DNA of 64,000 nt from Sphingomonas sp. (lineage in GTDB: Bacteria; Pseudomonadota; Alphaproteobacteria; Sphingomonadales; Sphingomonadaceae), in assembly GCF_017744835.1 (NCBI RefSeq), contig NZ_JAGIAM010000006.1, forward strand, positions 148,383 through 212,382. The letters are read 5' to 3'. The first letter of the stretch is position 1. Each line of letters begins with the position of its first letter. The notes beneath the pieces are model-generated. The model was not told the DNA's origin, did not search any database, and saw nothing but the letters and a program-made list of their open reading frames with translations. Below are positions 51,585-62,936 of this stretch, in pieces. Made by a program: the position numbers and the translations under genes.

Positions 51585-53780
51585 ATGCCGATCCAGATTC
51601 GCACCAGCCTCGCCGAGCCCGAGACCGGACCCGCGTTCGTCCCACATCGCCCGCAGCGCCCTGAGAAGAGCGAAGGCGGCAAGCGATTCAAGCTCGTCTC
51701 GGATTATCAGCCTTCGGGCGACCAGCGCTTCGCCATCCCCGAGCTGGTCGAGCAGGCGCAGGCCGGCGAGCGCGACCAAGTGCTGCTAGGCGTCACCGGC
51801 TCGGGCAAGACCTATACCATGGCCAAGGTGATCGAGGAGCTGCAGCGCCCCGCGCTGATCCTCGCGCCCAACAAGATCCTCGCCGCCCAGCTCTACGGCG
51901 AGTTCAAGAGCTTCTTCCCCGAGAACGCGGTCGAATATTTCGTCAGCTATTACGACTATTACCAGCCCGAGGCGTACGTCCCCCGCTCGGACACCTACAT
52001 CGAGAAGGAAAGCTCGGTGAACGAGGCGATCGACCGGATGCGCCACTCGGCCACCCGTGCGCTGCTCGAGCGCGACGACGTCGTCATCGTCGCCTCGGTC
52101 TCGTGCCTCTACGGCATCGGCTCGGTCGAGACCTATTCGGCGATGATCTTCGACCTCAAGAAGGGTCAGGTCGTCGACCAGCGCGAGATCATCCGCAAGC
52201 TCGTCGCGCTCCAGTACAAGCGCAACGACGCCGCCTTCACCCGCGGCGCCTTCCGCGTCCGCGGCGACAGCCTCGAGATCTTCCCCTCGCACTATGAGGA
52301 CAGCGCCTGGCGCGTCTCCTTCTTCGGCGACGAGATCGAGGAGATCACCGAGTTCGATCCGCTCACCGGCGGCAAGGTAGCGAGCCTCGACTATGTCCGG
52401 GTCTTCGCCAATTCGCACTATGTCACGCCGGGCCCGACGATGAAGCAGGCGATGGAGGGCATCCGCCACGAGCTCGCCGAGCGGTTGAAGGAGCTGGAAG
52501 CCGAGGGAAAATTGCTCGAGCACCAGCGGCTCGAGCAGCGCACCAATTTCGACCTCGAGATGATCGCCGCCACCGGCTCGTGCGCGGGCATCGAGAATTA
52601 CAGCCGCTTCCTGACCGGGCGGCTGCCCGGCGAGCCGCCGCCCACCTTGTTCGAATATCTGCCCGAGAACGCATTGCTCTTCGTCGACGAGAGCCACCAG
52701 ACGATCGGCCAGATCAACGGCATGTCGCGCGGTGACCACAAGCGGAAGATCACCCTCGCCGAATATGGCTTTCGCCTGCCATCGGCGATCGACAACCGTC
52801 CGCTTCGCTTCAACGAATGGGACGCGATGCGCCCGCAGACCGTCTATGTCTCGGCGACGCCCGGCGATTGGGAGATGGAGCAGACCGGCGGCGTCTTCGT
52901 CGAGCAGGTGATCCGCCCCACTGGCCTGATCGACCCGCCGGTCGAGATCAAGCCGGTCGAGGAGCAGGTCCAGGACCTGATCCAGGAGTGCAAGGCCACT
53001 ACCGCCAAGGGCTATCGCACCCTCGTCACTACCCTGACCAAGCGTATGGCCGAGGATCTGACCGAGTATATGCACGAGGCGGGGGTCAAGGTCCGCTACA
53101 TGCATTCGGACACCGAGACGCTCGAGCGCATCGAGCTGATCCGCGACCTGCGGCTGGGCGTGTATGACGTGCTGGTAGGCATCAACCTGCTGCGCGAGGG
53201 GCTCGACATTCCCGAATGCGGCCTCGTCGCGATCCTCGATGCCGACAAGGAAGGCTTCCTGCGCTCCGAGACATCGCTGATCCAGACCATCGGCCGCGCC
53301 GCGCGCAACGTCGAGGGGCGGGTGATCCTCTATGCCGATCGCATGACCGGCAGCATGGAGCGCGCGCTCGCCGAGACCAATCGCCGCCGCGAGAAGCAGC
53401 AGCAGTATAATCTCGAGCACGGAATCACGCCCGAGACGGTCAAGAAGAACATCGGCGACATCATCGCGCATGTCGCATCGAAGGATCAGGTCACCGTCGA
53501 GATCGACGAGGACCGGCCGCACATGGTCGGCCACAATCTGCGCGCGTACATCGAGGAGCTCGAGAAGAAGATGCGCGACGCCGCCGCCAACCTCGAGTTC
53601 GAGGAAGCCGGTCGCCTCCGCGACGAGATCCGCGCGCTCGAGGCCGAGGAGCTCGGTCTGCCGGCCGACGAGCACAGGGCGCCGATCATGGGCCGCTCGA
53701 ACGAAGGCAAGCCCGGCACGCGCAAGACGCGCTACGGCAAGACGCAGAAGACCCGGATGGGCGGCCCGCGCCGGCGTTGA
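51585..53780 (+). CDS. uvrB: Excinuclease ABC subunit B
   Basis: [73 protein letters not shown]. Confidence 0.98.
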
Positions 53781-53852: not shown

Positions 53853-54314
53853 GTGCTTTGGCGGGGCGGCACGGGGGAGATCCTATTGTCGTCGATCAAG
53901 GCCATCTGCGAAGAGCATCGCGCGCTTGAGGCGCGGGCGGCGCAGCTGCTCAGGATCGTCGGCTCGCCCGTCGCCGATCCCGCTGCGGTGACTGCGCTGC
54001 GCTGGGGCATGGCCCAGGCGCTGGTCGATCATTGCGCGCACGAGGAGCGCGAGGTCTATGCCCTGCTCTTCGCGTCGGGCGACGACCCGGCGATCGCCGT
54101 GGCCGGGCGCTTCCGTGCCGATCACGACGCGCTCGCCCGCCGCTTCGCCGGCTATGTCGCCGCCTGGCCGATCGCCCGAATCGCGCGCGAATGGGAAGTC
54201 TTCCGCAGCGACACCGCCGAGCTGGTGATCGAGATCAAGCGCCGCATCACTGCCGAAGAGGCCGAGCTCCATCCCCACTATGAGCGCCTCGCCGATCGTC
54301 GCGCGGCTGCCTGA
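53853..54314 (+). CDS. Hemerythrin-like domain protein
   Basis: EEHRAL, DHCAHEE..VY, ADHDAL, RITAEEAELHP four-helix pattern; the last His ligand appears replaced by Arg. Confidence 0.65.
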   Translation: MLWRGGTGEILLSSIKAICEEHRALEARAAQLLRIVGSPVADPAAVTALRWGMAQALVDHCAHEEREVYALLFASGDDPAIAVAGRFRADHDALARRFAGYVAAWPIARIAREWEVFRSDTAELVIEIKRRITAEEAELHPHYERLADRRAAA

Positions 54315-54356
54315 GGGCGGTTGAGCCGCCCGGGCACTTCGCCCATAAGGCTCGGA

Positions 54357-54881
54357 ATGCGCCGCCTGTCCGTCTCCGCCGCCGCGCTGTTCGCGCTCGC
54401 CGGCTGCTCCGAAGCCGTGATTCCGTCGCGGCCTGCTCCCCCCGTTCCGGCGCCTGCGCCAGCGCCGCCGCCCGCGCCCAGGCCCGCGCCACCCACCTCC
54501 GCCGACTGGCGCGACTGGCCGCTGACTCCCGGCACCTGGACCTGGCGCCACGACGCAGGCGGCACGATCGCCGAATTCGCCGGCGGCGAGCTGTCGCTGC
54601 GCTGCGACCGCGCCCGCGGCCGCGTGCAATTCTCGCGCCGCGCCGTCGCCGTCCCGCCCGCGCCGGTCAACGTCAACGTCCGCACCACCAGCATGGCCCG
54701 CACGCTCCAGCTCCAGCCGTCGGGTGCCAGCCTCGTCGCCGATCTCGGCGCGCGCGACACGCTGCTCGATGCGATCGGCTACAGCCGCGGGCGGTTCGTA
54801 GTGGAGGGAGGCGGAATGCCGACCTTGGTCGTGCCGGCCTGGGCCGAGACGCTGCGCGTGATCGAGGATTGCCGGGGCTGA
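54357..54881 (+). CDS. Hypothetical lipoprotein with Pro-rich linker
   Basis: MRRLSVSAAALFALAGC lipobox; DWRDWPLTPGTWTW; DTLLDAIGYSRGRF. Confidence 0.7.
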   Translation: MRRLSVSAAALFALAGCSEAVIPSRPAPPVPAPAPAPPPAPRPAPPTSADWRDWPLTPGTWTWRHDAGGTIAEFAGGELSLRCDRARGRVQFSRRAVAVPPAPVNVNVRTTSMARTLQLQPSGASLVADLGARDTLLDAIGYSRGRFVVEGGGMPTLVVPAWAETLRVIEDCRG

Positions 54882-55036
54882 GTCGTGTAGCGACGCACGT
54901 GCCGCGAACCACAGAACTCTGAGAATCGCACCATCTTCGCTGCAAAACAAGACTTGTTCTGCGACTCGCACTGATTCAAGATTCGCCCGTGCCTTGAAGG
55001 CACACGGCTCTTCAACAAGCGAAAGGAGGTGATCCG

Positions 55037-55093
55037 ATGTCTCATGGTTCAGCAGTGAGGTCGGTTCAGTTCGTTCGGGAGACGCGCCGCTGA
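55037..55093 (+). CDS. 18-aa small ORF MSHGSAVRSVQFVRETRR within a structured transcript
   Basis: Preceded by AAAGGAGGTGATCC (55022-55035), a 14-nt perfect complement of the 16S rRNA 3' end. Confidence 0.5.
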   Translation: MSHGSAVRSVQFVRETRR

Positions 55094-55226
55094 GCTGAAG
55101 GCGCGGACGGAAGCCCTCCGTCCGTTCGCAAGCGGGAGGTATCCTCCTCCAATCAACGCTTGCAGCCTCCGGCAAATGCGGCCCGCATGGTCTCCCGGGC
55201 TGGAGCTTCCGGCCGCTGACCATGTC

Positions 55227-55272
55227 GGAGGTCGCCGGGTGCCCTGATGGGCCCCGGCGGCCTCTTTCATTT
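55227..55272 (+). terminator. Intrinsic terminator
   Basis: GAGGTCGCCGGG...CCCGGCGGCCTC followed by TTTCATTTT. Confidence 0.8.
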
Positions 55273-55391
55273 TGAAGGCGTCGGCCGTAACATCGTTCCG
55301 CTCGCGTGACTGACGCTGAAGATGGGGCACCATCGGGGAGCGCGGGCTTGAGCGCCGCGCGTCTGGGCTTCACCGAAACGGGAGAAAGCCC

Positions 55392-56024
55392 ATGCCGCAT
55401 TCGAGCAACCTTCTCGCCTTCGCCTTGGTGTCGCTGGGGATGGTCCTCACCCCTGGGCCCAACATGGTCTACCTCGTCTCGCGCTCGATCTGCCAGGGCC
55501 GCGCCGCGGGGCTGGTATCGCTCGCCGGCGTGCTGGCGGGCTTCCTCTTCTATATGGTCTGCGCCGCGCTCGGCGTGACTGCGCTGCTGCTCGCGGTGCC
55601 GCTCGCCTATGACGCGATCCGCCTCGCCGGCGCCGCCTATCTGCTGTGGCTGGCGTGGCGCGCGGTGCGGCCCGGCGGGCATTCGCCGTTCGAGGTCCGC
55701 ACCCTGCCCGTCGACGGTCCGCGCCGACTGTTCCTGATGGGGCTGCTCACCAACCTGCTCAATCCCAAGATCGCCGTCATGTACCTCTCGCTGCTGCCGC
55801 AGTTCATCGATCCGGCGCAGGGAAGCGTGCTCGCCCAGTCGCTCGCGCTCGGCGGCACGCAGATCGCGGTCAGCATGGCGGTCAACGCGCTGATCGTCGT
55901 CTCCGCGGCCTCGGTGGCGCGCTTCCTCGCCGAGCGGCCCGGCTGGGCGCAGCTCCAGCGCTGGCTGATGGGCACGGTCCTCGCGGGCCTCGCGGTCCGC
56001 ATGGCGACCGAGGCCCGGCGCTAG
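55392..56024 (+). CDS. LysE/RhtB-family amino-acid exporter
   Basis: LTPGPNMVYLVSRS..QGRAAG, GAAYLLWLAW, GLLTNLLNPKIA. Confidence 0.92.
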   Translation: MPHSSNLLAFALVSLGMVLTPGPNMVYLVSRSICQGRAAGLVSLAGVLAGFLFYMVCAALGVTALLLAVPLAYDAIRLAGAAYLLWLAWRAVRPGGHSPFEVRTLPVDGPRRLFLMGLLTNLLNPKIAVMYLSLLPQFIDPAQGSVLAQSLALGGTQIAVSMAVNALIVVSAASVARFLAERPGWAQLQRWLMGTVLAGLAVRMATEARR

Positions 56025-62618: not shown

Positions 62619-62644
62619 CGCGCCGACCCGGCGGGCGGATGCTA

Positions 62645-62830
62645 AGCGAGTCGAGGTTCTCCCGCCGGTCCAGTCCGTGCGGGAGCTAAGACGGGAAGCC
62701 GGTGCGAGACCGGCGCTGCCCCCGCAACTGTAAGCGGCGAGCGGCGATCCACCATGTCACTGAGGGGCTCGCCCCTTGGGAAGACGGATCGTCCGCGCTG
62801 ACCCGTGAGCCAGGAGACCTGCCTCCGACG
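62645..62830 (+). ncRNA. Cobalamin (AdoCbl) riboswitch
   Basis: AGGTTC...CTAAGACGGGAAGCCGGTG..A.ACCGGCGCTGCCCCCGCAACTGTAA...CACTG...GGGAAG...GAGCCAGGAGACCTGCC (B12 box), directly 5' of metE. Confidence 0.95.
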
Positions 62831-62936
62831 CGATAACGTCCACCGGCGGGGTGCCCGGTCTGGTCGCTGACATGCCGTGGCCGGGCAACCGTCCGCGCGT
62901 GCCCGTGTCCAGTCTCGCCCCGTCCTTCATCGGGGT

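Follow-up and report, generated by a model that had tools for sequence, protein, structure and literature searches.

A small RNA gene at positions 54947-55273, plus strand, of a 64,000-nucleotide (nt) stretch of a Sphingomonas sp. genome (contig NZ_JAGIAM010000006.1, positions 148,383 to 212,382; hereafter the window) is probably the Sphingomonadales homologue of the alphaproteobacterial rre small mRNAs (rreB and rreR), and would work by docking a ribosome and opening a long helix. The gene is real and self-contained, a longer sphingomonad version of the rreB/rreR/CC2171 mRNAs, and the rre family is, as judged from sequence, the same RNA family as the Caulobacter small RNA (sRNA) CC2171 of Rfam (RF01867). 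Its neighbors are a lipoprotein gene (54321-54881) on one side and a LysE-family gene (55392-56024) on the other. Conservation, complementarity to 16S rRNA, structure, and synteny are all observed for the sphingomonad RNA; its predicted length is about 290 nt, with a putative promoter and a terminator of its own and a likely transcription start at about 54986-54992. An earlier note, made from the letters of the window, had described a structured transcript at 55000-55272 with an 18-residue open reading frame (ORF) at ATG 55037 and a strong terminator, and had proposed to check their conservation. This stand-alone anatomy of Shine-Dalgarno sequence (SD), small ORF, stems, and terminator stands, and the SD, the start, the frame length, and the stop position are kept across the genus and across Sphingomonadales loci; the true extent is slightly larger, from a promoter motif at 54947 through a 5′ hairpin to an RNA end near 55273, and the known family had gone unrecognized. 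The parts of the unit are listed below.

54947-54957 (+): 11-bp palindrome ACAAGACTTGT containing the −35-like CTTG (54953-54956); order-wide consensus
54973-54983 (+): −10-like element GATTCAAGATT, consensus GAnTCAnATT, at fixed spacing from CTTG
54985-55008 (+): 5′ hairpin, into which all 24 genus sequences fold; also in the single-sequence fold
55013-55020 (+): conserved leader motif CAACAAGC, predicted single-stranded
55021-55035 (+): extended SD GAAAGGAGGTGATCC, a 15-nt perfect complement of the 16S 3′ end
55037-55093 (+): small ORF of 18 codons plus TGA, encoding MSHGSAVRSVQFVRETRR; ATG at 55037, 1 nt after the SD
55043-55090 (+): 5′ arm of the long helix, ORF codons 3-18 (RNAalifold columns 75-122 with 221-268)
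55104-55125 (+): variable hairpin CGGACGG...CCGTCCG, an insertion in 7 of 24 sequences (closest relatives only); in the single-sequence fold
55126-55165 (+): apical domain, stem GCAAGCG/CGCTTGC, enclosing the hairpin GGAGG-TATCCT-CCTCC and then AATCAAC
55135-55150 (+): local hairpin GGAGGTATCCTCCTCC, with a conserved register of GGAGG, 6-nt loop, and CCTCC
55178-55224 (+): 3′ block, partner arm of the ORF by RNAalifold pairing, ending in GCTGACCATG
55227-55273 (+): intrinsic terminator, a scan hit with a conserved stem (55227-55265) and the U-rich tail TTTCATTTT

The extended SD GAAAGGAGGTGATCC is the exact reverse complement of the genus 16S tail, ...GGAUCACCUCCUUUC(U), which we took from six rRNA operons in three same-genus genomes, the rRNA operon of this genome being unassembled. 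We scanned for 16S-complement matches around every GGAGG on both strands of the 3.9-Mb genome and found 5200 five-mers, two 12-mers, and a single 15-mer; the longest other match is 12 nt, so the 15-mer is unique, and one of the two 12-mers belongs to a shorter paralogue in the same genome. The SD had been described as a perfect 14-nt match, exceptionally long for the window and correctly spaced from the start codon. Its complementarity holds, its length is 15 nt, and it is the longest match to 16S in the whole genome, with a single nucleotide (G55036) before ATG 55037. That base could itself form a G·U pair (16 with one G·U), and A55037 mismatches. The element was found in 23 of 24 genomes of the genus, at 72-90% identity, and the SD is invariant in 24 of 24 genus sequences. 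Class-wide, substitutions in the core of the complement are A-to-G or C-to-U and retain G·U pairing, with exceptions only at its two ends (GUAAGG in locus L051, GAUCG in short paralogues), which argues that selection acts on pairing with 16S rather than on the letters themselves. Nearly all homologues across the class, and the RF01867 consensus as well, have the motif yCAACAA ahead of the SD; in the window this leader, CAACAAGC, has a predicted probability of being unpaired of 0.6-0.7.

These features place the RNA in a known family. A permissive Rfam scan aligned 55013-55245 to RF01867 with 29.3 bits (E = 2e-4 when 571 nt were searched; 27.7 bits when the genome was), and a scan at gathering threshold reported nothing at the locus, its matches in the window being cobalamin and ZMP/ZTP riboswitches only. 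The RF01867 alignment follows the head CAACAAnCGAAAGGAGGUGAUCCnnUGUCUCAU almost letter for letter and also takes in the segment before the terminator that pairs with the early ORF, as well as the terminator itself, so that the family features present are CAACAA, the 16S complement, the start, UCU CAU, the early-ORF/pre-terminator stem, and the terminator. Other weak matches at the locus (sul1, ar14, P6, HgcF, and RNaseP-T; E = 1-7) were treated as noise. An RF01867 search of 151 class-wide genomes gave matches in 26, with the Caulobacter control above the cut-off; true matches share yCAACAA, a 12- to 17-nt 16S complement, a fixed start position, and a small ORF. Two further matches in this genome (L056 and L059) are bare terminators, not paralogues. 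Compared with RF01867, the window copy is about 130 nt longer in the stretch from its stop codon to the 3′ partner, and Rfam files the family as a non-coding sRNA with the ORF unannotated. CC2171 reportedly stems from the Landt 2008 screen, an attribution taken from the Rfam description and a Methylorubrum preprint. A Northern blot has confirmed CC2171 in Methylorubrum (bioRxiv 10.1101/2022.01.24.477521).

The rre RNAs provide the experimental background. In Bradyrhizobiaceae, rreB is a 165-nt RNA whose complement spans 17 nt and whose ORF of 14 codons begins with GTG; in Rhodobacterales, the ORF of rreR is 18 codons long (Hahn et al. 2016, PMC5711450). The same study found rreB mostly in the ribosome pellet, co-sedimenting with 30S and requiring the 5′ extension of the SD, and reported that both the length of the SD and the use of GTG as start keep its translation weak. 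When a stop codon took the place of the start, rreB RNA was stabilized, pointing to turnover that depends on the start codon, with ribosome binding and translation controlling the decay of the RNA; 20-fold overexpression of the ribosome-binding RNA left growth unchanged; the RNA is far rarer than ribosomes; and synthetic RreB and RreR peptides, each conserved within its own clade, were unstructured, their overproduction causing no phenotype (PMC5711450). The authors named Caulobacterales, Rhizobiales, Rhodobacterales, and Rhodospirillales as orders with rre, mentioned neither Sphingomonadales nor CC2171, and concluded that rre function "remains elusive" (PMC5711450). We found no later functional study of rre in the literature, the citing papers coming from the same laboratory only. 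Like rreB and rreR, the sphingomonad RNA is predicted to be a small transcript made on its own, from an RpoD-like promoter to a terminator, and a very long 16S complement directly precedes an ORF in the range of 14-18 codons that is kept in the clade, with peptides dissimilar between clades. Unlike them, it has a complement that stops short of the start codon, an ORF that forms one arm of an approximately 45-bp helix, and an extra GGAGG/CCUCC hairpin domain; its predicted length of about 290 nt compares with 165 nt for rreB.

The region 54985-55275 folds at −157.8 kcal/mol, versus −122.8 ± 5.5 for dinucleotide shuffles (z = −6.4). We built a consensus structure from the 24 genus sequences with RNAalifold (Python) and added a test of cognate against non-cognate duplexes. 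Standard pairs make up 97.2% of the cells of the consensus structure, compared with 93.3 ± 0.4% for shuffled partners and 39-54% for slid ones; 15 pairs carry changes in both partners, and on each of these measures 0 of 500 shuffles do as well. Within the genus, covariation is found in three places, namely, the distal part of the long helix, the GGAGG/CCTCC hairpin (e.g., columns 177:188, G-C in 16 and A-U in 7), and the terminator, where 8 pairs show compensatory changes. The stem letters of the 5′ hairpin likewise differ among the 24 sequences (mean, −13.0 kcal/mol, versus −7.1 for shuffles). The earlier note had taken GGAGG/CCTCC as an anti-SD able to pair with the ribosome-binding site (RBS); the element behaves as a covarying local hairpin, and nothing observed points to an anti-SD role. 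The AATCAAC that follows it (55151-55157) is predicted to be unpaired, with a probability of 0.84-0.86.

The long imperfect helix, running from 6 nt past the AUG to one base short of the stop, pairs nearly the entire ORF with the 3′ block. The N-terminal codons of the ORF pair with GCUGACCAUG, and GCTGACCATG, found in most of the 119 sphingomonad loci, is conserved throughout the order as the partner of codons 3-6. In Sphingobium the ORF helix is retained with other letters (UUCGGGGAAUG:CAUUUCCCGAA, versus GUUCGGGAGAC:GUCUCCCGGGC in Sphingomonas), and the proximal stem covaries between paralogue types (CAUGGUU:GACCAUG here, CAUUGUC:GACAAUG in the short type). Across 126 distinct sequences, the 3′ half of the ORF pairs with its own downstream partner at a mean of −25.9 kcal/mol, versus −15.8 with partners from divergent lineages, and in 84% of the comparisons less than a tenth of the foreign partners match the energy of the cognate duplex.

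The ORF has exactly 18 codons in 128 of 143 sphingomonad loci and 16-20 in the remainder. Among 100 distinct sequences the stop is TAA in 53, TGA in 32, TAG in 15, and never TGG, of which about 5 would be expected from column frequencies; as the sequences are related, this is a hint only. Class-wide, the start stands at a fixed place and is always ATG (17), GTG (7), or TTG (2); codon 2 is always Ser, encoded by all four UCN codons; and ORFs range from 18 to 32 codons, with peptides otherwise unrelated between lineages. Thus the start and the frame length look selected. The amino acid sequence shows, by its codon statistics, no coding-type selection: over codons 7-18 the summed entropy at positions 1, 2, and 3 is 12.4, 12.5, and 9.5 bits, making third positions the least variable; the invariant codons 1-5 show no synonymous change; and the C-terminal halves differ radically among genera (QFVRETRR, SFRAEHYR, KIPTEHIR).

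It nevertheless has to be asked whether the peptide (MSHGSA-x-R/G-S-...) is the key product, the RNA being a tiny mRNA with a strong RBS and a structure that tunes expression. The fixed frame length, the exclusive use of true stops and starts, and the Ser2 codons could all be read in this way; MSHGS is kept across the order, as is Ser9 in 97 of the 100 distinct sequences, and RreB and RreR offer a precedent for conservation within a clade. Other observations point in the opposite direction: third positions are not the most variable, the radical C-terminal changes track the base-pairing partner, and the N-terminal codons lack synonymous change, as a constraint on RNA pairing with GCUGACCAUG predicts. 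Peptides show no similarity between clades, and the synthetic rre peptides were unstructured and inert on overproduction. We therefore regard a functional peptide as unlikely. Selection has kept the docking site, the start, the frame length, and the pairing, not the amino acid sequence, and it is accordingly more likely that ribosome binding and translation themselves, rather than the peptide, are the functional event.

The working we propose is as follows. The RNA would be made from its own promoter and end at its own terminator. Behind the 5′ hairpin, the unstructured leader CAACAAGC and the 15-nt complement would dock the 30S subunit unusually tightly, and enrichment of the RNA with 30S or 70S would be expected to depend on GAAAGGAGGUGAUCC. 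The AUG, 1 nt farther on, would open the 18-codon frame, and the helix that starts at codon 3 would limit initiation or elongation and have to be opened, so that weak translation is expected. A ribosome reaching the stop would unzip the whole helix, and the outcome might be cleavage and decay of the RNA or release of its 3′ and apical parts. For the sphingomonad RNA, 30S binding, weak translation, and start-codon-dependent decay are properties borrowed from its homologues. More tentatively, and with the odds against it, the RNA may act as a sensor of free initiating ribosomes, in which docking and translation would unzip the helix and lead to decay or to a freed 3′ block and apical domain; the mRNA of the always-adjacent lipoprotein would be the obvious candidate target of the freed parts.

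Several points weigh against the docking and helix-opening model. All of the mechanism for the sphingomonad copies is carried over by analogy from Bradyrhizobium rreB. The RF01867 score of 29.3 bits lies well below the gathering cut-off of 75, and a 15-nt perfect complement followed by AUG, as read from the sequence, falls short of the 16 to 17 nt that define rre and departs from its GUG start. In thermodynamic folding the SD has a probability of only about 0.35 of being unpaired, partly through pairing with the CCUCUUU tail of the terminator, which makes its accessibility ambiguous; pairing of the SD with CCUCC or CCUCUUU lies beyond a covariation test because the SD is invariant. Helices 3-5, between the ORF and the 3′ block, are almost invariant within the genus, so that their support comes from one-sided changes and the comparison between genera rather than from dense covariation. 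The fixed frame length and a Ser2 encoded by four synonymous codons leave room for a functional peptide. Finally, the universal linkage to the lipoprotein gene is not explained by docking and helix opening.

In a rival reading the RNA is a trans-acting base-pairing sRNA, possibly with a dual function, whose ORF helix would mask or uncover a seed (such as AAUCAAC or the 3′ block), with the lipoprotein mRNA as a possible target. An own promoter motif, a 5′ hairpin, and an intrinsic terminator are typical sRNA architecture, the AAUCAAC is conserved and unpaired, Rfam lists the family as an sRNA, and the one-gene synteny is invariant across the order. However, a target is known for no family member, the letters best conserved class-wide are those of the 16S complement and the start rather than a candidate seed, and the AAUCAAC/GGAGG domain is missing from most sphingomonad genera; we consider this reading quite unlikely. 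Lower still is the likelihood of a decoy, suggested earlier for this transcript as a 30S-sequestering RNA, that would soak up free 30S subunits or cover the 16S anti-SD and so damp initiation globally. Its 30S-binding part fits, by analogy, the co-sedimentation of rreB, and a complement of 15-17 nt is both far beyond the needs of translation and the best-conserved feature of the RNA. The harmless overexpression of rreB and the rarity of the RNA relative to ribosomes argue against simple titration, and a pure decoy needs no conserved start, frame length, or stop.

A third suggestion, that an Arg-rich leader peptide serves as an attenuator or other cis-regulator of the downstream LysE-type exporter gene, is refuted despite the shared strand, the terminal Arg-Arg, and the 119 nt between terminator and exporter gene: a complete ZMP/ZTP (pfl) aptamer of the exporter gene (RF01750, 55296-55375, plus strand; 55.7 bits versus a cut-off of 39) lies between the RNA's terminator and lysE, lysE adjoins the RNA in 0 of 143 loci and what lies downstream is not related from one genome to the next, Arg17 and Arg18 occur in only 47% and 57% of distinct sequences and are thus not conserved, and the consensus fold has no alternative pairing that overlaps the terminator stem. 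The proposed check of whether the context is fixed next to lysE therefore returned variable downstream genes. As in trpL-type attenuators, there is a short ORF whose translation would remodel downstream pairing and whose length is conserved more than its sequence; unlike them, the RNA has no fixed downstream gene and no choice between terminator and antiterminator, the terminator being constitutive in the consensus fold. A type I toxin-like RNA, also raised earlier, finds no support. Such toxins are small, hydrophobic, membrane-active peptides, and MSHGSAVRSVQFVRETRR is hydrophilic and Arg-rich, like its homologues, in agreement with the earlier remark that the peptide is not hydrophobic; its sequence drifts, and scans of the minus strand at the locus found no promoter- or terminator-like site, no dedicated search having been made for an antisense partner acting in trans.

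Other systems offer partial parallels. In the STAB-SD of Bacillus thuringiensis cryIIIA mRNA, a near-perfect SD near the 5′ end reportedly acts by holding 30S, and here too the presumed role of the SD is to hold 30S rather than to yield protein; unlike in STAB-SD, where no start codon follows and the mRNA is stabilized, the start codon of rreB lowers stability. SgrS/SgrT, RNAIII/hld, and SR1/SR1P are likewise short structured RNAs with their own promoter and terminator and a translated small ORF (promoter, terminator, and translation being predicted here), but they have defined targets and conserved peptides, whereas the peptide sequence here drifts.

The promoter-like consensus TACAAGnCTTG-N16-GAnTCAnATT was present in 126 of 138 loci with upstream DNA. 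We infer from its layout that it is a promoter, with a CTTG-type −35 and a CAnATT −10 at sigma-70 spacing; its spacing and elements resemble the "RpoD-like" promoter of rreB. A generic sigma-70 scan found nothing at the position of the motif, and short paralogues carry CTTG-N17-CCATATTG instead. The −10 region holds a GANTC site (54973-54977, middle base free) of the kind subject to CcrM-type methylation. The palindromic −35 and the GANTC in the −10 may point to control by the cell cycle or by a regulator. At the other end of the unit, the terminator scan reported 55249-55263 plus CTTTCATTTT; the conserved stem is longer.

The lipoprotein gene is the one fixed neighbor.

54321-54881 (+): lipoprotein gene; public gene call of 174 amino acids from M13, lipobox LAGC

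Every locus whose DNA reaches upstream (128 of 128) has a homologue of it ahead of the RNA gene, on the same strand, unlike in rre, where context was not conserved outside Bradyrhizobiaceae (PMC5711450). The lipoprotein belongs to no Pfam family and is named only "hypothetical protein/lipoprotein" in the sources consulted; its AlphaFold model (pLDDT 88) has a beta fold with weak likeness to Bartonella IalB (Foldseek E = 1.8e-3, TM score 0.41-0.48), a match that gave no hint of what the protein does. The gene is not linked to non-sphingomonad family members. The distance from the lipoprotein gene to the SD has a median of 163 nt and a minimum of 71-75 nt, which leaves no room for a separate terminator, and the terminator scan saw none between gene and RNA in the window; transcription of the lipoprotein gene therefore probably continues through the RNA gene and stops at the terminator of the latter. 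The short gap further suggests co-transcription or shared regulation of the two.

Downstream, the ZTP aptamer ends 17 nt before the LysE-family translocator gene (55392-56024; PF01810, E = 1.5e-29). ZTP riboswitches usually control purine and folate genes, and an exporter under ZTP control is perhaps noteworthy. A second riboswitch of the window, a cobalamin riboswitch (RF00174, 122 bits), lies at 62637-62841 on the plus strand. As conserved neighbors, lysE, mutS, and the hemerythrin-like ORF were rejected over the 143 loci; the last (53853-54314, plus strand; PF01814, E = 3.6e-9), which lies between uvrB and the lipoprotein gene, is a neighbor in 2 of them. The uvrB gene (51585-53780) lies upstream on the same strand and is nearby in 28 of the 143, and in an alphaproteobacterium of another family (L047:1-1344) uvrB ends about 150 nt before an rre-type gene, so that uvrB adjacency may be a remnant of an older synteny.

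The 26-nt head GGAGGTGATCCGATGTCTCATGGTTC was found in at least 119 species, and all named records among the matches listed are Sphingomonadales, including Sphingomonas, Sphingobium, Novosphingobium, Erythrobacter, Altererythrobacter, Sphingomicrobium, Allosphingosinicella, and others. In most genera the form is short, 79-120 nt separating the ATG from GCTGACCATG, and its size is close to that of rreB. The long form, with 130-180 nt, is found in Sphingomonas-named loci and, with a different insert, in Sphingobium; the block CATGGTCTCCC was found only in Sphingomonas-named or unnamed loci. A short CC2171-type paralogue, with a frame starting MSHCH, is present in about a quarter of the Sphingomonas genomes searched. 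The genome studied here has its own paralogue outside the window (L036, contig C1:1266983-1267151, minus strand), which scores 67 bits to RF01867 and has a 12-nt 16S complement and a 23-codon frame, MSHCHTPTAAPSKASVRSVGALA.

RNAs of this kind are thus already known; the sphingomonad clade and its long form are absent from the published list of orders and lie below the Rfam threshold. New here are the refutation of the lysE link, the codon-position and stop statistics, the cognate/non-cognate pairing test, the promoter motif, and the lipoprotein synteny. The element has been missed by gene callers and by the Rfam threshold, and it should not be taken for a leader belonging to the gene that comes next. 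Known since 2008/2016, RNAs of the rre/CC2171 family occur widely in Alphaproteobacteria and bind the ribosome unusually tightly, as shown for rreB. The 119 or more sphingomonad species supply a dense comparative series that separates the features that are kept from those that drift, and the resulting pattern directs attention to ribosome-driven remodeling of the RNA, not to a micropeptide, with the fixed lipoprotein linkage as a first concrete handle for genetics. Should the ribosome-sensor reading prove true, the rre/CC2171 RNAs would be a new class of ribosome-gated riboregulator in which the length of the frame is the selected trait.

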